A DNA stretch of 64,000 bases from Devosia sp. (GTDB lineage Bacteria; Pseudomonadota; Alphaproteobacteria; Rhizobiales; Devosiaceae): NCBI RefSeq assembly GCF_040509215.1, contig NZ_JBEVLL010000324.1:5857-69856 (forward strand). The letters are read 5' to 3'. The translations under genes and the position numbers were made by a program. The notes beneath the pieces were generated by a model, which was given only the letters and a program-made list of their open reading frames with translations, searched no databases and was not told the DNA's origin. Position 1 is the stretch's first letter; each line of letters starts with the position of its first letter. This document shows positions 11,961 to 56,377 of this stretch, piece by piece.

Positions 11961-13250
11961 TCAGCAGGGCGACGGGATGCGCACCAGCCCCCAGCCGAAG
12001 ATCGCATCCCGGCCGGGCTCACCGAGATCGAGGCTGGCCTCGATAAGTGCATCCATGGCGGCTGGCGGCTCGACACCCTTGGCCAGGGCTGCCGCCAGCG
12101 CCGTGGTGACGAAAGGTACGGCGAAGGACGTGCCGGTCTGGGGGCGGATGCCGGAGATCGAGGCGGCCGTGGAGATATCGACGCCGGGCGCGGCAAAACT
12201 CACATGTTCGCCCTGCACTGCCCGGCGATAGATGTTTTGCCGGCGGTCGACGGCAGTCACCGCGACGACATCGGGATATGCGGCGGGAAACATGGCTTCG
12301 GCCCGCGGCCCCGCATTGCCGACTGCCGCGACGACCGGGATGCCGGCAGTCTGGATTCGAGAGATGGCGTCGGCGAGAATGGCATTGTCGGGCCCGGCAA
12401 GGCTGAGGCTGGCAACATCGACCTGAGCCGTGGCCAGACGATCGAGTGCTTCGACCAAGGCGAATACATCGCTTCGCTCGTCCTGACCAACGCGGCCGAA
12501 GGGATCGACGACGAGCACCTCGGCAGCGGGCGCCAGGCCAGGGACCCGACCGCTGCCAACGAACATGGCGACGACGGCGGTGCCGTGTTTCAGCTCCGAC
12601 GGCTCCGCATCCACATTGCCGATCGTTTCGAGCGTCAGGCGCGCTTCGCTCAGCATCGGATGGTCGAGATTGACGCCTGTATCAATGACGCCGATATGAG
12701 GCGCGAAAACGCAGGTAGCGCCGACGGAAACCGGCGGCCAATCGACGGCCTCCCAATGTTCGCACATGGCGCCTTCGCATCCGATGGGAACCGCCTGGCT
12801 TCGATAGTAGGAATTGGGCGCGACGAGCGCTTCGGGCGAGGCTTTGCGCACGGCAGCCAGGGCTGCTTCGACATCGAGATCGTCGGGTAATTCCAGCAGC
12901 AGCCGGCCACTGCTTTCCGAGACGATCAGAAAACCCGCGGCGAGCAGGACGTCCCTGCCCGCAGCATCGAGGCTCGCGACCACCACTTGATCGTCGGCCT
13001 GTTCGGGCAATGGCACAGCGACCGGCGCAGGACGGCGGACGATCCGGCCGCCCATCCATGGTTCGTCGTCATCATCGTCATCGTCGCTCGAACCGGAGTC
13101 CCAATCGTCGTCATCGTCACCGCCATCATCGTCGTCATCGTCCTGCGCATAAGCCGGGGCAACGAGAAGGGGCGAGGCGAGGAGCCCGGGGACTGCAACG
13201 AGACCGAGCGCGACGAGCAAGGCGCGGAGCGAAGTGGTGGGGCTGGACAA
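11961..13250 (-). CDS. Secreted S8 family serine peptidase (subtilase) with poly-Asp N-terminal extension
   Basis: Catalytic triad contexts IGVIDTGVNLDHP (Asp), KHGTAVVAMF (His) and TGTSFAVPFV (Ser). The signal peptide ends APAYA, followed by QDDDDDDGGDDDDDWDSGSSDDDDDDDEPW. TTG start with AAGGAAG upstream. Confidence 0.9.
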   Translation of the reverse strand: MSSPTTSLRALLVALGLVAVPGLLASPLLVAPAYAQDDDDDDGGDDDDDWDSGSSDDDDDDDEPWMGGRIVRRPAPVAVPLPEQADDQVVVASLDAAGRDVLLAAGFLIVSESSGRLLLELPDDLDVEAALAAVRKASPEALVAPNSYYRSQAVPIGCEGAMCEHWEAVDWPPVSVGATCVFAPHIGVIDTGVNLDHPMLSEARLTLETIGNVDAEPSELKHGTAVVAMFVGSGRVPGLAPAAEVLVVDPFGRVGQDERSDVFALVEALDRLATAQVDVASLSLAGPDNAILADAISRIQTAGIPVVAAVGNAGPRAEAMFPAAYPDVVAVTAVDRRQNIYRRAVQGEHVSFAAPGVDISTAASISGIRPQTGTSFAVPFVTTALAAALAKGVEPPAAMDALIEASLDLGEPGRDAIFGWGLVRIPSPC

Positions 13251-13285
13251 TATGCGCTTCCTTCGACAATCGGTCTTGCAAGGCT

Positions 13286-13312
13286 AGACGTCTGAGACAT
13301 CAGAATATTCTA
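13286..13312 (-). promoter_or_regulatory. Candidate ECF-type promoter upstream of the S8 peptidase
   Basis: The minus strand reads TAGAATAT-N14-CGTCT, 35 nt before TTG 13250. Confidence 0.4.
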
Positions 13313-13339
13313 TGCAGCACACAAAAAAGCGACAGGCGC

Positions 13340-13367
13340 GGGAATAAACCCCATCACCCATCCGTCT
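13340..13367 (+). promoter_or_regulatory. Candidate autoregulatory ECF-type promoter upstream of the sigma factor
   Basis: GGGAATAA-N15-CGTCT ending 8 nt before ATG 13376. It lies back-to-back with the 13286..13312 site. Confidence 0.45.
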
Positions 13368-13375
13368 TCCAGCGT

Positions 13376-13876
13376 ATGAGCACCATAGCTTCCAGTCTCG
13401 TTCCCATGCTGCCACGCCTCCGGCGCTATGCGCTCGCCCTTTGCAAGGTGGGCGACATCGCAGACGATCTCGTGCAGACCGCCTGCGAAAAGGCGCTGGC
13501 CAGCCAGCGTCAAACGCTCGACCTCTCCTTTGACGCCTGGATGTTTCGCATCCTGCGCAATAGCTGGATCGACCGGCTGCGCCGCCAGAAGACGCGCGGC
13601 GAGGAGATCGACATCGTCGAGCACAGCGATATTGGCGCGTTCGATGGCTCCTCCATTCCGGAAAACCGCCTGGTGCTGAAAAAGACCATGGAGGCCATCG
13701 GCCGCCTGCCGCAGGACCAGCGCGAGTTGCTGCTGCTGGTGTGCGTGGAAGAGCTGAGCTATCGCGACGCGGCCGAGGTGCTCGACCTGCCTATCGGTAC
13801 AGTCATGAGCCGGCTTGCGCGGGCCCGTCGAAAACTCGCCGAGGATGTCGGCATAGAAGCGGGGCAATTGCTGTGA
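13376..13876 (+). CDS. ECF (sigma-70 family group IV) RNA polymerase sigma factor
   Basis: 166 aa with region 2 (DLVQTACEKAL...WMFRILRNSWIDRLRRQK) and region 4 (LPQDQRELLLLVCVEELSYRDAAEVLDLPIGTVMSRLARARRKL). The track ORF 13010..13876 is over-extended. Confidence 0.9.
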   Translation: MSTIASSLVPMLPRLRRYALALCKVGDIADDLVQTACEKALASQRQTLDLSFDAWMFRILRNSWIDRLRRQKTRGEEIDIVEHSDIGAFDGSSIPENRLVLKKTMEAIGRLPQDQRELLLLVCVEELSYRDAAEVLDLPIGTVMSRLARARRKLAEDVGIEAGQLL

Positions 13877-46586: not shown

Positions 46587-47447
46587 TTAGTTCAAGTCTC
46601 CCCTGATGCGCTCCAGGCGTGCCAAGGCTTCAGAGGTGTCCTTCTTGGACGCGACAGCGAGAGCGACGACGAGCGTCTCCAGCCATGCGAGTGTAGTTCC
46701 GTGTGTGGCCATGCCGCCAGTCTCTCCGCGTGGTAGCACGACCAACTGGTCGCATTTCTGTGCCAGTTCGTTTCGGGCATCACCGGTCACCAGGACAATC
46801 GGTATGCCAAGACGCAGGGCCTCATTGGCCGCTGCGCGAACTTCCGCGTAGACGCGATCATAGGAGAGGACCAACAGACCATCGTCGGGGTGGAGCTGAA
46901 GCAATTCGTCGGCAAGAGCCTTGCCGGAGGCGCGCAGCAACATGACTTCACGGCCATGGCGTCGCATCAGGTGGCCGATGTAGCTGACGATATGGGCAGT
47001 TTGGCCCTGGCCGAAGAGGACGATGCGGCGGCGGGCACCCAATATCTGGGCGACAGGAGCAATGGTACGTCCCGCCTCGCCATCGCGCAGATGAAAAAGA
47101 GCTTTCGCTTGCATATCGAGCGATCTCTCGATCGCTTTGCGCATGTCCGCTTGCGTTTCGCCGACCACCTTGCTGAAGGCCTTGCTGGGTGTTGATGCAC
47201 TAAGCGATTCAGCCAGGAGCTGCTTGAGTTCGGCGAGACCGCCGAAGCCGAGCGCCTGCGCGGTTCGCACGACGGTGGCGTCCGACGTTTCCAATATGAG
47301 GGCGAGATCGTGCGCGGATTTCGCCACGACGTCGAGCGGATTGCTGACGAAGTACAATGCGACGCGACGCATGGCCTTGGGCAGATCGGGCAGTTTGCGC
47401 TTGATGTCGTCGTAAAGCGTCTCGCTCAAACCGAGCCTCCGTAGCAA
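46587..47447 (-). CDS. MurR/RpiR family transcriptional regulator (HTH_6 + SIS)
   Basis: N-terminal HTH (AMRRVALYFVSNP...SDATVVRTAQALGFGG) and a SIS-like C-terminal domain. Confidence 0.85.
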   Translation of the reverse strand: MLRRLGLSETLYDDIKRKLPDLPKAMRRVALYFVSNPLDVVAKSAHDLALILETSDATVVRTAQALGFGGLAELKQLLAESLSASTPSKAFSKVVGETQADMRKAIERSLDMQAKALFHLRDGEAGRTIAPVAQILGARRRIVLFGQGQTAHIVSYIGHLMRRHGREVMLLRASGKALADELLQLHPDDGLLVLSYDRVYAEVRAAANEALRLGIPIVLVTGDARNELAQKCDQLVVLPRGETGGMATHGTTLAWLETLVVALAVASKKDTSEALARLERIRGDLN

Positions 47448-47493
47448 ACGCTACTTATTGCTACGAAGCCGGGCGACTGGCAACGGGTTTGTC

Positions 47494-48075
47494 ATGGCAA
47501 AACTCCTTAAAGCTCAGGCACTGCAATGGAACCACATCGGCCCGTGGAGTTTCCGGGTTGAGGCCGGGCATTGCCTTGGCATCACCGGACCATCGGGCGT
47601 CGGAAAAAGCGTTCTGCTCAGAATCCTCGCGGATCTGTTGCCCCACCAGGGCGAGGCTGAGGTGGATGGGGTCGCCTGCTCCGCTATGCCGGCGCCGACA
47701 TGGCGCCGGACGGTGCGCTATTGTGCGGCTGCTTCGGGCTGGTGGGCAGATACGGTCGCGGAGCACTACACCGATATCGGTGCGGCAAAGCTAAACGCCG
47801 GTCAAATCAGCCTGACGCCGGATCTGTTTGACAAAAATCCGGCTCAACTCTCGACCGGTGAACGCCAGAGGATGGCGCTGCTCCGGTCCCTGGAAAACGA
47901 TCCGGGCTTTTTGCTCCTCGACGAACCAACGTCAGCACTCGACGCGACGACGACAGCAGAGGTCGAAGCGTTGATCGCCGGAAAAATGCGAAACGGCATG
48001 GGCGTGGTGCTGGTCTCGCACGATGGCGGGCAGTTGGAACGGCTATCCAGTTCCATCCTCGAGATGCGCAAATGA
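47494..48075 (+). CDS. fetA: FetA/YbbL-like ABC ATP-binding protein
   Basis: Walker A GPSGVGKSVLL, signature LSTGERQRMALLRSL. Coupled to the fetB-like gene. Confidence 0.8.
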   Translation: MAKLLKAQALQWNHIGPWSFRVEAGHCLGITGPSGVGKSVLLRILADLLPHQGEAEVDGVACSAMPAPTWRRTVRYCAAASGWWADTVAEHYTDIGAAKLNAGQISLTPDLFDKNPAQLSTGERQRMALLRSLENDPGFLLLDEPTSALDATTTAEVEALIAGKMRNGMGVVLVSHDGGQLERLSSSILEMRK

Positions 48076-48872
48076 GCACGGGTTTCAGCACGCTTGAACT
48101 GATCGTGGCGGCTATTCTGGTTGTAGCGAGCGCCGGCCTGTCGCTGGCGCTAAAGCTGGGTATTCATCGCTCCATGCTGATATCAGCCGCGCGCATGGTG
48201 GTGCAGTTGCTGATCGTCGGGCTCCTCCTGCGCAGCATTTTTGCGATGACCAATCCATGGATCACGGCCGGGCTTGTGGCACTGATGATTCTCGCGGCCA
48301 GCTATGAGGTCTCCGCACGCCAGCAGCGCAAGCTTGCTGGTGCTTGGAATTTCATCGTCAGCGGCGCTGCGGTCAGCGCTTCGACTTTGTTCGTCTCGCT
48401 TTTTGCCCTGACCAGTGTTGCAATGACGCAGGATTGGACAGCGCCGCAGGTTGCCATTCCAATTGCCGGCATCGTGCTCGGAACATCGATGAATGCGGCC
48501 AGTGTGGGACTGACCGCGCTGATGGACGGCCTTGTCGCAGACCGAGACGCCATTGAGGCGCGGCTGGCGTTGGGTCATAGCAAGCGACAGGCCGTGCAGA
48601 AACTGATGCAGCGCGCGGCACACACCGGCACGATCAATGTCATCAACCAGATGGCCGGGGCCGGGATCATCACGCTACCCGGGATCATGAGCGGGCAGGT
48701 CTTGGCGGGACAAGATCCGCTGATTGCAGCGCAATCGCAGATTTTCCTGATGCTTTTGCTCGGTGCGGTATCAACGGCCAGCATCGTCATTGCCATCACA
48801 CTGGCGCTCGGACGATTGACCGACGAGCGGCACCGGCTGCGTCTCGACCATTTGCAGGGAGCCGTCGGATGA
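48072..48872 (+). CDS. fetB: FetB/YbbM-like (UPF0014) ABC permease, putative iron exporter
   Basis: Strong similarity by eye to E. coli FetB blocks (IPIAGIVLGTSMNA..; LPGIMSGQVLAGQDP). Confidence 0.85.
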   Translation: MSTGFSTLELIVAAILVVASAGLSLALKLGIHRSMLISAARMVVQLLIVGLLLRSIFAMTNPWITAGLVALMILAASYEVSARQQRKLAGAWNFIVSGAAVSASTLFVSLFALTSVAMTQDWTAPQVAIPIAGIVLGTSMNAASVGLTALMDGLVADRDAIEARLALGHSKRQAVQKLMQRAAHTGTINVINQMAGAGIITLPGIMSGQVLAGQDPLIAAQSQIFLMLLLGAVSTASIVIAITLALGRLTDERHRLRLDHLQGAVG

Positions 48873-50743
48873 GCGACAGACGAAATCCGATGCAGGCGGT
48901 CAATGGCTGGTTCGCAGGCCTGCTCGATCCGTTCCGCCAGCGGCAGGACCATGAGCCGCCGCCCGAGATACTGGGCTTTTTCTGGCACTATCTGCGCCAG
49001 GCCAAGGTGCCATTCGGTGCGCTGCTCGTCGCCAGCGGCGTGGTCGCACTGATCGATGCCGCGGTGTTCTACTTCGTCGGTCGCCTGGTAGACCTCCTGT
49101 CCGCAGCAAACCCGGCGAGCGGCTGGCAAGGGCTGATTGCCGGTCACGGTTGGGAATTGTTCGCCATGGCCGCGGTAGTCCTGGGCGGTCGAACACTGTT
49201 TTCGTGGCTGCTGATCGCGCTTGAAAGCATCACCATTTCGCTCGGCTTCCACAGCATGGTGCGCTGGCAGGCCTGGCTGCACGTGTCACGCCAGAGCATG
49301 ACCTACTTCAACAATGACTTTGCCGGTTCGATCGCTCAAAAGGTCTGGCAGAGCGGCCCGTCTGTTGGCGATTTTTCGATCAACCTGATCCAGACCGGCT
49401 GGTACATTGTGGTCTATACGGCGACGACGCTGGTGATGGTGGCAACACTCGACTATCGACTGGCGCTGATCGTGGCCTTGTGGCTTGGGCTCTTTGGGGT
49501 GATCGCGTGGCGATCCCTGCCCCGCATCCGCCGCTACACGGCAGAGACCGCCGAGGCCAATTCCGCGCTCCATGGCACGGTCGTCGATGCCTTTTCCAAC
49601 ATCACGACGCTCAAGCTCTTTGGGACGGACACGCACAATGACGGGCATATCCGTCGCGGTTTTGACCGGTTTCTGGAGGCCAGCCGGCGCGGGGCCAGTA
49701 CGGTTACCAATGCCTCGGTGACAGCTATTCTGCTTTCAGGGCTCGCCATCATTGCGGCGGCAGCGCAATCGATCGATCTCTGGGCCAACGGGCTGATGAC
49801 GACGGGAGCCGTGGCGTTTACGCTCGGACTGCTGCTGCGGCTTAACCAGATGCTGCTGGGCCTGCTCAATCAGTTCAACGTCATGATGCGCAATTTTGGG
49901 GTGGCGCAGAACTCGGCGACAGGCGTGGCGCGGCCGCACGGGGTGATCGATGCTCCGAACGCCAAACCGCTGCAGATCAGCAAGGGCGAAATCCGCTTCG
50001 AGCAGGTTCGCTTCTGCTATCATCCGGGGCGTCCAATCATTGAAGGCTTTGATCTGACGATTGCACCAGGCGAGCGCGTCGGCGTTGTCGGGCGTTCTGG
50101 CGCCGGCAAGTCCACGCTGATGAACCTGCTGCTGCGCTTCTATGATCTCGATGCCGGACGCATCCTCATTGATGGGCAGGACATCGCCCAGGTCATGCAG
50201 GAAAGCCTCAGGACGAGCATTGGCGTTGTCACCCAGGATACATCCCTGCTGCATCGCAGCGTGCGAGAAAACCTGGCCTATGGGCGCCCTGACGCGACGG
50301 AGGCCGAGGTCGTCGAGGCTGCGCGCGTTGCACAGGCGCATGACTTCATCGGCAATCTCACCGACTTCAAGAAGCGCGGCGGCTATGAGGCCTATGTGGG
50401 AGAGCGGGGCATAAAGCTCTCGGGTGGGCAGCGGCAGCGGGTTGCTATTGCACGGGTTCTGCTGAAGGACGCGCCGATCCTGTTGTTGGACGAAGCGACT
50501 TCGGCTCTCGACAGCGAGGTCGAGGCTGCCATTCAGGCACAGTTTGAAATGCTGATGCGCGGCAAGACGGTGGTCGCCATCGCCCATCGGCTTTCCACCA
50601 TCGCGGCGATGGATCGGCTGGTGGTGATGGAGGAAGGACGCATTATTGAACAGGGCAGCCACCAGCAATTGCTGGCGGCCGGCGGGCGCTATGCGAGCCT
50701 TTGGAGCCGGCAGTCCGGCGGATTTCTGGCCGAGGAAGACTAG
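48869..50743 (+). CDS. ABC exporter, fused TMD-NBD half-transporter (MsbA/multidrug-like)
   Basis: Six N-terminal TM helices, then GRSGAGKSTLMNLL, LSGGQRQRVAIARVL and ILLLDEATSALD. The ATG overlaps the fetB stop (ATGA). Confidence 0.9.
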   Translation: MSDRRNPMQAVNGWFAGLLDPFRQRQDHEPPPEILGFFWHYLRQAKVPFGALLVASGVVALIDAAVFYFVGRLVDLLSAANPASGWQGLIAGHGWELFAMAAVVLGGRTLFSWLLIALESITISLGFHSMVRWQAWLHVSRQSMTYFNNDFAGSIAQKVWQSGPSVGDFSINLIQTGWYIVVYTATTLVMVATLDYRLALIVALWLGLFGVIAWRSLPRIRRYTAETAEANSALHGTVVDAFSNITTLKLFGTDTHNDGHIRRGFDRFLEASRRGASTVTNASVTAILLSGLAIIAAAAQSIDLWANGLMTTGAVAFTLGLLLRLNQMLLGLLNQFNVMMRNFGVAQNSATGVARPHGVIDAPNAKPLQISKGEIRFEQVRFCYHPGRPIIEGFDLTIAPGERVGVVGRSGAGKSTLMNLLLRFYDLDAGRILIDGQDIAQVMQESLRTSIGVVTQDTSLLHRSVRENLAYGRPDATEAEVVEAARVAQAHDFIGNLTDFKKRGGYEAYVGERGIKLSGGQRQRVAIARVLLKDAPILLLDEATSALDSEVEAAIQAQFEMLMRGKTVVAIAHRLSTIAAMDRLVVMEEGRIIEQGSHQQLLAAGGRYASLWSRQSGGFLAEED

Positions 50744-51663
50744 CCGAGGAGCGCGGACTCGATGCCATCGAGCACGATGTCGGCCGCCGTCGGGGCAACC
50801 ATGGTGTACCAAGGCTCGATGACAACCTCGCGCGCATTTCCAGTGCGGACGGCTTTGAGCTTGGGCCAGGTTTCGGCGATCGCTGCCCGCGCCTCTCGTG
50901 CAATCGGGTAATCGATTTCGGCGAAAAATAGCCAATCGCCATCCATGTCAGCGACTTCATTCGGCGTGAGCTTGCGGATGATGGCATCGAAGCGCTGGGA
51001 CGCCGGACGCAGGAGGCCCAAATCTTTTGCGATGGTGCCGACAAACGCCCTCTCGCCGTAAACTTCCAGCCCCTTGGGCCCGATGCGGGCGAAGGAGATT
51101 TCGTCGCCACTGCGTCCGGCTGCGGCGAGACGCTGGCGCAGGGCGCTGGCACGGGAATGATAGCCGGCCATGATGCGGGTCGCCTTTTCGCGCTCGCCCA
51201 AAAGCTCGGCGAACAGCCGAAAATCCTGCTTCCAGTTGTAGCCGTAGCCTTCTGTGAGAAAGGTTGGCGCAATGGCATTGAGCTCGTTGAAGGCGCGGCC
51301 ATGGGCGCCGGCCGCGGTTCCGACGATGACGTCTGGTCTGAGAGCCGCAATCGCTTCGAAATCAAGTTGGGTGCGGGCGCCGACAGGCTTGATCGCCGCT
51401 ATGGCCTCTGCATGTTCGGGAAAAGCCTCGGCGAGATAGGCCGGCACGGGCGCGGGGAAGCCGTTGATGGTCGTGCCAACCGGCACCGTACCGAGATTGA
51501 TGGCCTGATCCAATTGACCTGTTGCCAACGTGACAACGCGCTTCGGACGCGTAGGCACGGACATCGTGCCGAAAAAATGGGTGACCTCGCGCGGAAAGAC
51601 ACCGTCCGCGGCAGTGCTGCCCTTGCCCTCTGGCACTTCGGTCGGAGCGGTAAAATCGGACAT
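50740..51663 (-). CDS. Siderophore-type binding protein paralog 3 (Peripla_BP_2-like), no signal peptide
   Basis: Starts MSDFTAPTEVPEGKGSTAADGVFPREV, with AAGGAA upstream. It is homologous over its full length to the two upstream paralogs. Confidence 0.75.
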   Translation of the reverse strand: MSDFTAPTEVPEGKGSTAADGVFPREVTHFFGTMSVPTRPKRVVTLATGQLDQAINLGTVPVGTTINGFPAPVPAYLAEAFPEHAEAIAAIKPVGARTQLDFEAIAALRPDVIVGTAAGAHGRAFNELNAIAPTFLTEGYGYNWKQDFRLFAELLGEREKATRIMAGYHSRASALRQRLAAAGRSGDEISFARIGPKGLEVYGERAFVGTIAKDLGLLRPASQRFDAIIRKLTPNEVADMDGDWLFFAEIDYPIAREARAAIAETWPKLKAVRTGNAREVVIEPWYTMVAPTAADIVLDGIESALLG

Positions 51664-51665
51664 GT

Positions 51666-52553
51666 CTATTCCTTGAGGAGGCCGATTAGCTGATCGAGTA
51701 CGATCCGCGCTGCAGCTGCGCCGGCATTGTTGAAGAAGGGTTGGTAGTCGACTTCGACGGCGCGGCCCTCCCGCACGGCCTGCAGGTCTGACCACCCCGG
51801 CATGGACCTGATCATGTCGAGCCCATCACCCTGGCCCGCATAGACAATCCAGTCGGCAGTAACGGCCTCTATTTCGTGGGGCTCGATGTTGCGCGAAGTT
51901 GCCTCAAAGCTTTGCGCCTCCGGACGCCGGAGGCCGAGACCATCGGCAATCGTGCCGACGAAAGACTGGCGCCCCATGATTGTCAGGCGTTTGCCATTGG
52001 ACTGGATAAAGGACACAGTTTCCTGGCGGGGATTGGCGGCCGCACTATCGGCATGGAAGCGATCGAGAAATGCCTGAGCTTTTTCGATGCGCCCCAGAGC
52101 ATGGGCCATCAGCAGGAAATCCACCTGCCAGTTGAAACCCTTGCCGCGCGTGACGACGACGGGAGCAATTTGCAAGAGGGCGGCGTAATTCTCCTGCCGG
52201 TCGCCGGCGAGATTCATGAAGATCAGGTCGGGTTTGAGGGCGCGGAAGACGTCGAGATGCGGCGCCTTGCGATCGCCGAGATCGGTCAGGCTGCCGAGCT
52301 CTCGCGCCAGATGGGGATGGATATGGGTCAGGTAGGGCTCGAAAACACCCGTTCCATGCCCCTGTGTCGCTGCCACCGGCACCACGCCAAGCGTGGTGGC
52401 GCAATCGAGTTGGCCGGTAGAAATCACCGCGATACGGCGCGGCTCGTTTGCGATCAGCAGTTCTCCGGCCTCATGTCGGAGCTGGCGTGGAAAAACGCCG
52501 TCTGCGGCGTCGCTGCCGGTGTTGGAGAGACTCGTAGGAGCGAGTGAAATCAT
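51666..52553 (-). CDS. Siderophore-type binding protein paralog 2 (Peripla_BP_2-like), no signal peptide
   Basis: Starts MISLAPTSLSNTGSDAADGVFPRQL. The in-frame upstream sequence is Arg-rich and not hydrophobic. Confidence 0.75.
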   Translation of the reverse strand: MISLAPTSLSNTGSDAADGVFPRQLRHEAGELLIANEPRRIAVISTGQLDCATTLGVVPVAATQGHGTGVFEPYLTHIHPHLARELGSLTDLGDRKAPHLDVFRALKPDLIFMNLAGDRQENYAALLQIAPVVVTRGKGFNWQVDFLLMAHALGRIEKAQAFLDRFHADSAAANPRQETVSFIQSNGKRLTIMGRQSFVGTIADGLGLRRPEAQSFEATSRNIEPHEIEAVTADWIVYAGQGDGLDMIRSMPGWSDLQAVREGRAVEVDYQPFFNNAGAAAARIVLDQLIGLLKE

Positions 52554-52568
52554 CGATGCTGATCCGGG

Positions 52569-52603
52569 AAAATAGAAAGAGGCGGGACCGCGAAAGCCCC
52601 GCC
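52569..52603 (-). terminator. Rho-independent-like terminator between binding-protein paralogs 1 and 2
   Basis: The minus strand reads GGCGGGGC-tttcgcg-GTCCCGCC followed by TCTTTCTATTTT. Confidence 0.5.
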
Positions 52604-52626
52604 CCGATGGGTCATGACGACGACGA

Positions 52627-53613
52627 TCAGTTGATCGTTGCCGAGATCTTGTCGAGCACGATGCGGGCGGCGGTCGGGCCGGCATTGAAGAAGAAGGGGT
52701 CGAAATCGACCTCTACCGCATGACCGGCGGCAACGCCTTCAAGCGTGCTCCAAAGCGGAGCTTCGGTGATCACCTTGATGCCATCGCCGCGGCCTGCGTA
52801 GAAGATCCAGTCGCCATCGGCCTGGTCCAGCAGTTCGGTGCTGATGTCCTCAGAGGTCTTGGCAAAGGTCTGGCTGTCCGGACGAGCTAGGCCCATGTCC
52901 TCGGCAATGCTACCGGCGAAGGACGGCACGCCGAAGATGCGCGTGCGGTCGCCAGTCGACTGGATGAACGACACCGTCGGCGGATTGGCAGCAACCGACG
53001 CGGAAAAGGCGTCCGCATCGGCATGATACTGGTCGAGGAAGGCCTGGGCCTGCTCGCGACGGCCGAGCGCGTCGGCCGTGAGCAGGTAGATGACCTTCCA
53101 GTTGACGCCAGTCGCATTGGTCACGACGGTCGGCGCAATCTTGGACAGGATTTCATACTGGGCTCGCTCTTCCGGCGTGTCCTCGGCGGCATTGACGAGG
53201 ATCAGGTCAGGGCGAGCTTCGGCAAGGGCTTCAAGGTCGATCTCGAGGCGAAGGCCGAGATCGAGAACCTCATCAAACTGCGCAGACAGATCCGGGTAGG
53301 CCGTAACGAGATAGGGATCGACGAGACCCGACTGCCCATTGCCACGTGTGGTCGCGACCGGCACGACGCCCGCAGCCAGGGCGCTGTCGAACTGGCCAGT
53401 CGAAATGATCGCCACCCGCTTGGGCTCGCTGGCGAGCGTCGTTTCGCCCAACACATGCTTGATCGTGCGCGGGAAGACGCCATCGGCGGCGCCGCTACCC
53501 AGATCAACCAGGGCGCGCGGCGCAGTGTGGATCACATCCTGCGCTAAGGCAGGCAGGCCGAGCGCCAGGATGGCGAGGGGGATGGCGGCAAGGCCGCGGA
53601 GAGAAATCTGCAT
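52627..53613 (-). CDS. Periplasmic siderophore-type ABC substrate-binding protein (paralog 1, with Sec signal)
   Basis: Signal peptide MQISLRGLAAIPLAILALGLPALAQ. Alternative TTG start at 53637. Peripla_BP_2-like body. Confidence 0.85.
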   Translation of the reverse strand: MQISLRGLAAIPLAILALGLPALAQDVIHTAPRALVDLGSGAADGVFPRTIKHVLGETTLASEPKRVAIISTGQFDSALAAGVVPVATTRGNGQSGLVDPYLVTAYPDLSAQFDEVLDLGLRLEIDLEALAEARPDLILVNAAEDTPEERAQYEILSKIAPTVVTNATGVNWKVIYLLTADALGRREQAQAFLDQYHADADAFSASVAANPPTVSFIQSTGDRTRIFGVPSFAGSIAEDMGLARPDSQTFAKTSEDISTELLDQADGDWIFYAGRGDGIKVITEAPLWSTLEGVAAGHAVEVDFDPFFFNAGPTAARIVLDKISATIN

Positions 53614-53692
53614 GATTGTCCGCCCGGAATGTAGCAAGCGCTACAGTGTTATGATAAGGCGATTGTAATAGTCAAATTAAACATCGCTCTCC

Positions 53693-54730
53693 ATGACCGC
53701 ACCTTCCACCAGCTCGTCGCATGGACCATCCTCCCGTCTTCGGCGGTCAGCGGGGCTGTTCGCGCTGGTTGCGCTCCTGGCACTTCTGGTCCTTTGCAGC
53801 ATCGGTGTTGGCGCGAGACCCATCTCGATTGATATCGTGTGGCGCGCGCTGGTTGCACCGGATGGTGGGCGCGACGCCATCATTGTCTGGCAATTGCGCA
53901 TGCCGCGCACTTTGCTCGGCATTCTGGTCGGCGTTGGCCTCGGCCTTAGCGGCGCGATGATGCAGGCACTGACCCGCAATCCGCTTGCCGCACCGGGGCT
54001 CCTCGGCATCAATGCGGGCGCGGCCTTTTTCGTCGTCATCGCCATTTCTGTTTTCGGGATCACCAATTTTTCCGGCTATGTCTGGTTCTCCATGGCCGGC
54101 TGCGCGGCGACAGCGGCACTTGTCTACCGCCTCAGCGGCAATACCGGCTCTTCGGTGCAACAGGTGCGGTTGATCCTTGCAGGTGCGGCCATCTCGGCCT
54201 GCCTCGGCGCCGCGACCGGCATCATCACGCTCTACAATTCGCAGACGTTTGACTCCTATCGCTTCTGGGTTGTCGGCTCCCTGCAGAACCGCGTGCCGGA
54301 AGTTGCCTTCCAGGTTCTACCCATCATCCTCCTGGGTGCGGGGATGGTCGTTGCCTTGGGTGGCAGGCTCAATGCTTTGGCGCTGGGCGATGATGTCGGA
54401 CGAGCTCTGGGCGTGCGGATTACCCAGGTGCGGGCGCTGAGCATGGTGGCCATTACGCTTCTTTGCGGCGGCTCGACCGCCGCGGCCGGCCCAGTCGGCT
54501 TTGTCGGCCTCATGGTGCCTCATGCCGTGCGGATGATCGTCGGACCGGACTGGCGCTGGATCTTGCCTTATAGCGTCCTTGCCGGACCGATCGTGGTGCT
54601 CGCCAGCGACATTGTCGGACGGATCATCGCGCCTCCGGGCGAACTCGAAGTCGGCATCGTCACGGCGTTTGTCGGCGCGCCAGTTTTGCTCTTCCTTGTG
54701 CTCCGCAAGACTCAGGCGTCGCAGCGATGA
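53693..54730 (+). CDS. FecCD-family iron-siderophore ABC permease
   Basis: 345 aa, polytopic. RMPRTLLGILVGVGLGLSGAMMQ is typical of FecCD. Confidence 0.9.
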   Translation: MTAPSTSSSHGPSSRLRRSAGLFALVALLALLVLCSIGVGARPISIDIVWRALVAPDGGRDAIIVWQLRMPRTLLGILVGVGLGLSGAMMQALTRNPLAAPGLLGINAGAAFFVVIAISVFGITNFSGYVWFSMAGCAATAALVYRLSGNTGSSVQQVRLILAGAAISACLGAATGIITLYNSQTFDSYRFWVVGSLQNRVPEVAFQVLPIILLGAGMVVALGGRLNALALGDDVGRALGVRITQVRALSMVAITLLCGGSTAAAGPVGFVGLMVPHAVRMIVGPDWRWILPYSVLAGPIVVLASDIVGRIIAPPGELEVGIVTAFVGAPVLLFLVLRKTQASQR

Positions 54731-55785
54731 CCGAAGCATCCCCCAAGCTCAATCGTACGACATGGCGCCCCCTGCCCGGCGTTGCCCTACCTTACCAACC
54801 GCGCTCATTGTGGCTTCTGGCGATCTCGCTGATCGCCATAACTGCACTTGTTATTGCGACGCTATTGACCGGGGAATTCACGCTTTCACCGTCCGGCGTC
54901 TGGCAGACGCTGACCGGTCAGCAGGACGACAGCCTTGCCAATCTCGTTGTGCTGGAACTGCGCCTCCCTCGCATTCTGGCTTGCCTTCTCGTCGGCTTGG
55001 CCCTGGGCCTTTCCGGCGCGATTTTTCAGGGCATGGCCCGCAATCCACTGGCCAGCCCCGATGTCGTCGGCTTCACCACCGGCGCCGCGACCGGCGTCCT
55101 GGTTCTGTTGCTGGTCGAAGGGTTTGCCGTCACCGCAAGCCTGTCGGTCGGCGCCATGGTTGGCGGCTTTGGCACGGCCCTGATCGTCTACCTGCTGGCC
55201 ATGCGGCGCGGAGTTCATGGCCAACGGCTGATCCTCGTTGGCATCGCTATTGGCGCCATGCTGGCGGCGATCAATTCCTACCTCATCACCCGGGCCGAGC
55301 TGGAATCGGCGCAGGCCGCCCGCATCTGGATGCACGGAAGCCTCAATGGGGTGAGCTGGCCACAGGTTCTGCCACTGCTGCTCTGGTCATTGATCCTCGT
55401 GCCGGCGGCAATGGCTCTGTCGCGCCGGCTTGGCCTGCTCGAATTTGGCGACGATATCGCCGCCGGTCTCGGACTGCCGGTCAATCGCTCAAAGACGCAG
55501 CTCATTGTGGTTTCGATAACGCTTGCCGCCGCCGCCATCTCGGTTGGCGGACCGATCGGTTTTGTGGCACTCGCAGCGCCCCAGCTGGCGCGAAAACTGG
55601 CCGGAACCGGTGGCATCGCGCTGCTCCCATCCGCCGCCGTCGGTGCGACGCTCTTGCTTGCCGCCGATCTTCTGGCGCAACGCCTCCTGGCGCCTTTTCA
55701 GATACCCGTCGGCCTGCTGACCGGCGCGCTGGGGGGCGCCTACCTGCTCTTCCTCCTGTCGCGCGAGTGGCGCCGAGTGGACTAA
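54727..55785 (+). CDS. FecCD-family iron-siderophore ABC permease
   Basis: 352 aa, with RLPRILACLLVGLALGLSGAIFQ. The ATG overlaps the upstream stop. Confidence 0.9.
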   Translation: MTEASPKLNRTTWRPLPGVALPYQPRSLWLLAISLIAITALVIATLLTGEFTLSPSGVWQTLTGQQDDSLANLVVLELRLPRILACLLVGLALGLSGAIFQGMARNPLASPDVVGFTTGAATGVLVLLLVEGFAVTASLSVGAMVGGFGTALIVYLLAMRRGVHGQRLILVGIAIGAMLAAINSYLITRAELESAQAARIWMHGSLNGVSWPQVLPLLLWSLILVPAAMALSRRLGLLEFGDDIAAGLGLPVNRSKTQLIVVSITLAAAAISVGGPIGFVALAAPQLARKLAGTGGIALLPSAAVGATLLLAADLLAQRLLAPFQIPVGLLTGALGGAYLLFLLSREWRRVD

Positions 55786-55975
55786 ACTGCCAAGTGTAGT
55801 CATTCGATGACGCTATCCAGCGTCATGGCGAGGTTCAGATCAGTCCGTTCAACTGCAAGTTCAAAGCCGCATCCTGTGAGTGGGGCATCGCCCGCTTACT
55901 GTCCGACCACGACCGCTGGACCAATGCGCAGGATATCCAAGTTGCCGGCGGCCATATCACGTAAAGGGAGACGAA

Positions 55976-56377
55976 ATGCTCGATCATATTTTTCTGACCG
56001 TTGGCGATCTCGACCGCGCCATCGGATTTTACGAGGCGGTTTTACCCATACTGGGGATCAGTCGGCGCCTCGATTACGATGGCAATCAGGGCCCTGCCGG
56101 CCATCCGGACCTCAAGGGCTTTGGGGCCAATGGCCGGATATTTTTCTGGTTGCGGGTAGGTCAGCCGGCACCCAGCGCGGTGCATGTTGGCTTCGTGGCA
56201 GAGTCGGAAGAGATGGTCGACGCCGCCTATGCGGCCGCTCTGGCTGCCGGCGCAAAGCCAATCCACGCGCCGGGACCGCAGCTGCACTACGACCCGCGCT
56301 ACTATGCAGCGCAGGTCACTGACCTCGACGGCTATTCGCTCGAGTTCGTCTACAAAAGCTGGCAGCACAAGGATTGA
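55976..56377 (+). CDS. VOC (glyoxalase/bleomycin-resistance/dioxygenase) family protein
   Basis: Starts MLDHIFLTVGDLDRAIGFYEAVL, with RBS AAGGGAG upstream. The track ORF is over-extended from 55880. Confidence 0.85.
   Translation: MLDHIFLTVGDLDRAIGFYEAVLPILGISRRLDYDGNQGPAGHPDLKGFGANGRIFFWLRVGQPAPSAVHVGFVAESEEMVDAAYAAALAAGAKPIHAPGPQLHYDPRYYAAQVTDLDGYSLEFVYKSWQHKD

Follow-up and report, generated by a model that had tools for sequence, protein, structure and literature searches.

A 64,000-nucleotide stretch of Devosia sp. DNA (RefSeq assembly GCF_040509215.1, contig NZ_JBEVLL010000324.1, positions 5,857 to 69,856 of the forward strand; hereafter the window, whose numbering is used throughout) carries on its minus strand three tandem genes, c1, c2, and c3, for class III siderophore-type substrate-binding proteins (SBPs). 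c1 would serve a FecCD-type siderophore importer as its normal periplasmic binding protein. Conversely, c2 and c3 appear to be paralogs of independent origin that lack an export signal and so would stay in the cytoplasm. We assign a probability of roughly 60% to the view that c2 and c3 are neofunctionalized cytoplasmic binding proteins tied to the importer; their location, ligand binding, and hand-off role are inferred. The loss of the signal and of the permease-docking residues, a re-tooled but conserved pocket, an intact fold, purifying selection, and the constant linkage of these genes to an importer that has an exported paralog jointly argue for cytoplasmic, non-transport binding proteins.

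Paralogs without an export signal or a docking pair

The exported protein c1 (52627-53613, minus strand, ATG at 53613) is 328 amino acids (aa) long; its signal-less paralogs, c2 (51666-52553, minus strand, ATG at 52553) and c3 (50740-51663, minus strand, ATG at 51663), comprise 295 and 307 aa, respectively. All three match the Pfam family Peripla_BP_2 far above the gathering cut-off of 27.5 bits (c1, 73.1; c2, 60.0; c3, 63.8). The original prediction described three full-length paralogs with a shared block, and this is borne out: c2 and c3 are 51% and 38% identical to c1, and the N-terminal block and the C-terminal motifs are common to all three. The c3 start lies 2 nucleotides (nt) past the c2 stop, with an AAGGAA ribosome-binding site within the end of c2, and c3 is predicted from this arrangement to be translationally coupled to c2. 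Divergent from c1, across a 79-bp intergenic region, lie two FecCD-family permease genes of the plus strand (53693-54730 and 54727-55785), which are FepD/FepG-like on Pfam FecCD (298 and 284 bits) and NCBIfam matches.

Export signals of any type (Sec, twin-arginine translocation [Tat], or lipoprotein) were assessed by a hydropathy heuristic, which finds one in c1 and none in c2, c3, or their 27 clade relatives. The c1 signal peptide (53539..53613, minus strand) spans about 24-25 residues, contains a single Arg, ends in Ala-x-Ala, and is of the Sec type by eye; its maximum 12-residue hydropathy is 2.45, compared with at most 1.15 in the signal-less clades, and the c1 orthologs P0154 and P0155 use the same start Met. 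In the alignment, c2 and c3 start about 3 residues past the start of mature c1, and the in-frame sequence 5' of both is Arg/Pro-rich and non-hydrophobic in the window and in three related loci (L013, L014, and L015). The stretch that precedes the shared motif is 17-27 residues long with a hydropathy of at most 1.15 in the c2 and c3 clades, versus 25-119 residues and at least 1.62 in 87 signal-bearing homologs. Thus, the claims that the signal is confined to the promoter-proximal copy, that the other two copies begin near the mature N-terminus of c1, and that their upstream frames are Arg-rich and non-hydrophobic all stand, and orthologs have the same signal-less N-termini, with no upstream start that encodes a signal. 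The pattern is also singular within this genome: among 22 Peripla_BP_2 regions, 2 of which run off contig ends, 18 of the 20 that could be assessed have a signal, and those without one are c2 and c3 only.

Two ways in which c2 and c3 might acquire a signal were considered and rejected. The frames upstream of their starts remain open for 44-130 codons, but they are rich in Arg and Pro and not in frame with the gene upstream. A frameshift or read-through fusion, c1 to c2 or c2 to c3, that would borrow the c1 signal is contradicted by L015, where the c2 frame opens only past the c1 stop; no fused form was found among the homologs, of which proteins of near length only were searched.

In class III binding proteins, one conserved Glu per lobe docks on Arg patches of the permease, as set out for BtuF (Glu74/Glu202) and SirA (Glu109/Glu245) in PMC2966073 and PMC3741162. 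From 211 collected sequences, the 123 that were at least 280 aa long and had a locatable N-terminal motif were aligned; 88 were dropped, either as shorter or because the motif could not be located, as were two duplicates of c1 and c2 of the window. The 123 rows were grouped by their N-termini only into 87 signal-bearing rows, 30 signal-less rows, and 6 rows beginning at a Met within the motif. One of the 30, P0144, is a 5'-truncated c1-type protein with both docking Glu residues and was set aside, leaving 29. The docking positions were mapped to Glu109 and Glu245 of SirA via HMMER alignments, with the offset checked on Trp81, Glu103, and Arg125. Both positions are Glu in every signal-bearing row (87/87) and every Met-start row (6/6), c1 included (E128 and E260). 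Among the 29 true signal-less rows, the N-lobe Glu is present in 6, the C-lobe Glu in 2, and both in none; c2 has Asp and His at these positions, and c3 has Glu in the N lobe and Asn in the C lobe.

The pocket has changed as well. A C-lobe Arg (SirA Arg206, YfiY Arg169, FecB Arg240) is described in the literature as contacting the ferric siderophore. This column holds Arg in 94 of 94 exported-type rows (R225 in c1), Thr in all 14 c2 rows (Thr191 in c2), and Glu in all 15 c3 rows (E200 in c3). Two residues before it, an Arg found in 93 of the 94 exported-type rows is Gly throughout the c3 clade (15/15; G198 in c3), where an Asn kept in 92 of the 94 has likewise become Thr (15/15). Each clade has further invariant residues that are rare elsewhere, namely, Q64, H66, T68, E72, K96, Q271, and N275 in the c2 clade and T116, H121, and K197 in the c3 clade. 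Because the replacement residues are invariant within each clade, they argue for a new constraint rather than decay. The change from Arg to Glu or Thr argues against an identical mode of binding to the same anionic ferric complex, and the loss of this Arg together with the docking pair is consistent with proteins that do not work at the periplasmic side of the permease. c2 and c3 would no longer dock there, and their pocket would be re-tooled.

The six homologs that are annotated to start at a Met inside the shared N-terminal motif (P0163, P0167, P0172, P0173, P0175, and P0177, some of them from jgi or ena sources) keep both docking Glu residues; most likely, they are exported proteins whose start codons were miscalled. 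Elsewhere in this genome, Peripla_BP_2 genes form several further tandem arrays, on contig C147 (3906-9454, up to five in a row) and on C254, C70, and C65, all with signals, and arrays with about 30% identity are found repeatedly within the genus.

Fold, selection, and origin of the two clades

AlphaFold (AF2) models of c3 and c2, built from alignments of 68 and 67 rows, respectively, have mean predicted local distance difference test (pLDDT) scores of 96.2 and 95.6 and a predicted template modeling score of 0.93 each. Both consist of two alpha/beta lobes joined by one long helix (residues 158-181 in c3 and 156-172 in c2), so that c2 and c3 are modeled as keeping the complete two-lobe fold. 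A Foldseek search with the c3 model only returned YfiY in complex with Fe-schizokinen (PDB 3tny) as its top match (template modeling scores of 0.80/0.87), and the top matches were all siderophore SBPs.

Both genes are under purifying selection and are not decaying. Ratios of nonsynonymous to synonymous substitution rates (dN/dS) were estimated by the Nei-Gojobori method. Between the window and L013, the values, approximate because dS (0.7-1.4) is near saturation, are 0.073 for c2 and 0.118 for c3, compared with 0.077 for c1, 0.082 for FecCD_B, 0.091 for the neighboring ABC transporter gene ABC624, and 0.085 for FetB. In the comparison with L015, from Devosia sp. YR412, c2 has a value of 0.243 and its neighbors have values of 0.13-0.23. 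Reading frames are intact and of constant length in orthologs down to about 50% identity. The original argument against simple decay is thus upheld; neither frameshifts in relatives nor a raised dN/dS, which it had named as marks of pseudogenization, were found, the sole broken copy being a deletion remnant of c3 in YR412.

To trace the origin of the signal-less proteins, a tree was computed from the mature part only, with the signal excluded (a quick IQ-TREE run under LG+G4, with support from the Shimodaira-Hasegawa-like approximate likelihood ratio test [SH-aLRT] only). The c2 clade (14 rows; SH-aLRT, 100; stem, 0.46) is nested among proteobacterial exported proteins, and the c3 clade (15 rows; SH-aLRT, 100; stem, 0.67) lies beside actinobacterial lipoproteins. 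Since the two clades are placed apart in this tree, the export signal appears to have been lost twice, independently.

Searches with c3 and c2 as queries returned 220 proteins (E ≤ 1e-3) and 97 proteins, respectively, and related loci were found three times in genomes and once in metagenomes. The best 14 of the 220 c3 relatives are 49-95% identical and 307-316 aa long, and each begins no more than a few residues from the shared motif; the 13 full-length c2 relatives (64-90% identity, 295-310 aa) have equally short N-termini. The named sources of signal-less orthologs are Devosia spp., Ketogulonicigenium vulgare, and, for the c3 type only, a Comamonadaceae genome. For example, WP_449395416.1 of Devosia riboflavina is a c3-type protein (95% identity), WP_170848324.1 of Devosia sp. 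YR412 is of the c2 type, and ADO41602.1 and ADO41603.1 of K. vulgare, which are of the c2 and c3 types, have consecutive accessions and are encoded by adjacent genes. Public records label these orthologs merely as "ABC transporter substrate-binding protein." Carriage on plasmids was considered and rejected, the best plasmid matches being just 34-37% identical and actinobacterial.

Gene order is fully conserved between the window and the Devosia loci L013 and L016. In L015, c1 and c2 are kept, the gene for the ABCB-type transporter ABC624 is absent, and c3 is reduced to a remnant of 75 codons (L015, 11684-11908; also G507:C2:273144-273374). A single deletion seems to have removed most of c3 and the whole of the 624-aa ABCB gene while leaving c2 intact, and this joint loss, although only one event, may point to a connection of c3 with the ABCB gene. 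In the Comamonadaceae locus (L014), the genes for FecR, a TonB-dependent transducer, a signal-bearing c1-like protein, a signal-less c3-like protein, two FecCD proteins, and an ATPase (13063-13869) stand in a row. Thus, each signal-less type occurs without the other, c2 alone in YR412 and the c3 type alone in Comamonadaceae. A further genome, G014, has the FecCD genes and c1 only.

Expression signals and neighboring genes

A terminator-like hairpin with a U-tract had been proposed to separate c1 from c2 and c3, and one was found, with its position kept in two other Devosia loci. This candidate intrinsic terminator, attenuator, or 3'-end stabilizer (52569..52605, minus strand) lies inside the 73-nt gap between c1 and c2 and consists of 11 pairs, 8 of them G-C (52605..52579), followed by a T-rich tail. 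The whole scan yielded 3 terminator-like sites versus 3.4 expected from shuffled sequences, so that the count alone is not above chance, and the z-scores of the fold are modest (-1.8, -2.6, and -1.8). L013 and L015 both have a GC-rich hairpin with a U-tract at this place, the stem of the L015 hairpin differing in sequence, and a GGA or GAGGA Shine-Dalgarno-like motif lies between the hairpin and the c2 ATG in all three loci. In classical ABC operons, stoichiometry is set by a hairpin past the binding protein gene. The hairpin between c1 and c2 suggests, by analogy, that read-through probably yields less c2 and c3 than c1.

The 79-bp region between c1 and the permease genes includes a block (53630..53675, minus strand) that is conserved in a five-locus alignment. 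It holds a TTGAC box and, just upstream of c1, a perfect 16-bp palindrome (TGTAGC-N4-GCTACA, 53645..53630), both kept in five Devosia loci. These elements may be a promoter and an operator, perhaps of an iron-responsive regulator.

To survey the gene neighborhood, the 30 open reading frames (ORFs) between 28 and 64 kb of the window were scanned for domains. The FecCD pair is followed by a glyoxalase-family gene (region 53693-56377), and no gene for an ATPase follows the pair in the window; with no such gene beside the pair, the gene order suggests that the importer of Devosia has to rely on an ATPase whose gene lies elsewhere. Neither a siderophore synthetase, nor a TonB-dependent receptor, nor an importer ATPase is encoded among the 30 ORFs, and a Pfam search of these ORFs and of c2 and c3 found no flavin adenine dinucleotide (FAD)-binding or 2Fe-2S domain, the hallmarks of SIP/ViuB and FhuF.

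On the other side of the array, ABC624 (48869..50743, plus strand), an ABCB-type half transporter of 624 aa with an exporter fold, is convergent with c3. The stop ends of the two genes overlap by 4 nt (50740-50743), such that the two transcripts would run into each other or have a terminator region in common. ABC624 is syntenic in L013 and L016 and was lost in YR412 together with most of c3. A siderophore-specific role for it was considered and rejected; it matches only generic ABCB, Sav1866, and Atm1-type transporters, all under the NCBIfam cut-offs. Upstream of ABC624 lie a FetA/FetB-like iron-efflux ABC pair (47458..48872, plus strand), syntenic in the Devosia loci, and, divergent from this pair, a gene for an RpiR-type regulator (46587-47447). 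The pair and the regulator gene travel with the c2-c3-ABCB block in the Devosia loci and are not found beside c1 in G014. The whole stretch, including the FetA/FetB-like pair, looks like an accessory iron-homeostasis island.

Possible roles and relation to known systems

By sequence and fold, c2 and c3 belong to the YfiY/SirA/FecB branch, and they fail three functional hallmarks of that branch: the signal, the docking Glu pair, and the ligand Arg. The closest known relative, YfiY of Bacillus cereus, is a schizokinen-binding class III lipoprotein with the same fold and family as c1, c2, and c3 (phmmer E values to 3tny of 8.5e-21, 2e-15, and 3e-34, respectively); other near relatives are SirA and HtsA of Staphylococcus aureus and FecB of Mycobacterium tuberculosis. 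Like YfiY, c1 has both docking Glu residues and the counterpart of Arg169. Unlike YfiY, c2 and c3 have neither a signal nor a lipobox, Thr or Glu replaces Arg169/Arg206, and the docking pair is incomplete in every row. In function, the closest precedent is Btr (YbbB) of Bacillus subtilis, a cytoplasmic regulator of the AraC type that binds a siderophore through a FeuA-like domain (PMC3333878). c2 and c3 resemble Btr in being class III SBP-like modules without an export signal beside cognate importer genes and differ from it in that they stand alone, with lengths equal to that of a mature SBP, whereas the module of Btr is fused to a DNA-binding domain.

As cytoplasmic proteins tied to the importer, c2 and c3 would most likely be soluble intracellular binders of its cargo, either the siderophore in another state (iron-free or partly processed) or the released metal, and would act as a sink, a chaperone, or a hand-off step. 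In its most specific form, this proposal holds that a periplasmic siderophore binder twice turned cytoplasmic, losing its signal and docking Glu residues, exchanging the ligand Arg for Thr or Glu, and gaining new invariant His and Glu residues in its pocket loops, to become an intracellular cargo receptor at a type II ABC importer; so detailed a formulation is put forward tentatively, at less than even odds.

Btr also provides the model for a role in regulation, in which c2, c3, or both would be cytoplasmic sensors that modulate a separate transcription factor or the importer, as a Btr-like system split into two polypeptides. Btr establishes that siderophores can be sensed in the cytoplasm by an SBP-like domain (PMC3333878); low expression behind the hairpin would suit a regulator, and genes for RpiR- and GntR-type regulators lie nearby. 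However, Pfam finds Peripla_BP_2 alone in c2 and c3 and no DNA-binding domain, no regulator is constantly linked to them, the Comamonadaceae locus uses FecR-type surface signaling, and the family's ligand Arg has been replaced, all of which make a sensor unlikely. Conversion of the binding fold into an enzyme or a metal-handling protein, which would hydrolyze or modify the siderophore or bind iron directly through the new His and Glu residues, could account for the clade-invariant polar residues in the predicted pocket loops (H66 and E72 in c2; H121 and E200 in c3) and for the long stem branches of both clades, and transitions from SBP to enzyme are reported for other SBP classes (PMC7683729); yet neither a catalytic motif nor a partner enzyme was identified, and we regard this conversion as quite unlikely.

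The absence of both docking Glu residues from every row of the signal-less clades runs contrary to delivery to FecCD, and it weighs directly against the notion that c2 and c3 are still periplasmic, exported non-classically by hitchhiking on a partner or by the neighboring ABCB-type transporter, and widen the substrate range of the importer. Several binding proteins per permease are common, two c1 orthologs have an RR pair in their signals, so that Tat export does occur in the family, and an exporter-fold ABC gene abuts c3. Nevertheless, the signals of c1 in the window and of most of its orthologs contain a single Arg, the scanned ORFs of the window include no membrane-fusion or outer-membrane partner gene, the Comamonadaceae locus has a c3-type gene without an ABCB gene, and ABC624 matches generic ABCB exporters only; a periplasmic location is thus very unlikely. 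Hardly credible is the suggestion that c2 and c3 are non-functional leftovers of tandem duplication in slow decay. Their rare and patchy distribution and the deletion of c3 in YR412 would fit it, but it is contradicted by the selection data (dN/dS of 0.07-0.12), by the intact frames of constant length, by the invariant replacement residues, and by the high-confidence models.

Several observations count against a cytoplasmic, importer-linked role for c2 and c3. Loss of the docking pair is partial in places: the N-lobe Glu survives in c3 of the window and in five of its close relatives, and the C-lobe Glu survives in two distant c3 rows. Without the ligand Arg, the proteins might no longer bind any ligand, and the hairpin could prevent expression of c2 and c3. 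Signals were judged by the 12-residue hydropathy maximum and by eye and not with SignalP or TatP, start sites are gene-caller calls complemented by manual reading of four loci, and the selection estimates carry the near-saturation of dS noted above. The clades represent two evolutionary events and not 29, so that k-of-n counts overstate the statistical weight of the residue patterns. Finally, the c3 function is dispensable, given that c3 was lost in YR412, and the genes are rare: among 108 other Devosia species genomes, c3-type genes are present in 1, with one additional remnant, and c1-type genes are present in 3, and the c3 type is found in none of 400 other genomes of the class (E ≤ 1e-60).

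A search of the open-access literature, with subscription journals outside its scope, turned up no account of class III SBP paralogs that stand alone and lack a signal. The one match for a "cytoplasmic siderophore-binding" product (PMC13118786) concerns a Corynebacterium gene that we take to encode a SIP-type reductase. What is new here is the loss of the docking Glu residues, the replacement of the ligand Arg, and the double loss of the signal in signal-less class III SBP clades. Non-transport SBP paralogs can be recognized by three marks, namely, a missing signal, the absence of the docking Glu pair, and a change of the ligand Arg, and annotations as "substrate-binding protein" hide such paralogs. 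What a ferric siderophore undergoes once past the inner-membrane importer and before its iron is released is poorly understood; the known players are reductases and esterases, and we know of no dedicated binding protein for this cytoplasmic step. If the proposed role of c2 and c3 is true, they would be a clean natural case of SBP neofunctionalization in which signal, docking residues, and pocket all changed, twice, and iron release would gain a new type of component, a conserved protein of the cytoplasm derived from the binding protein of the importer itself.

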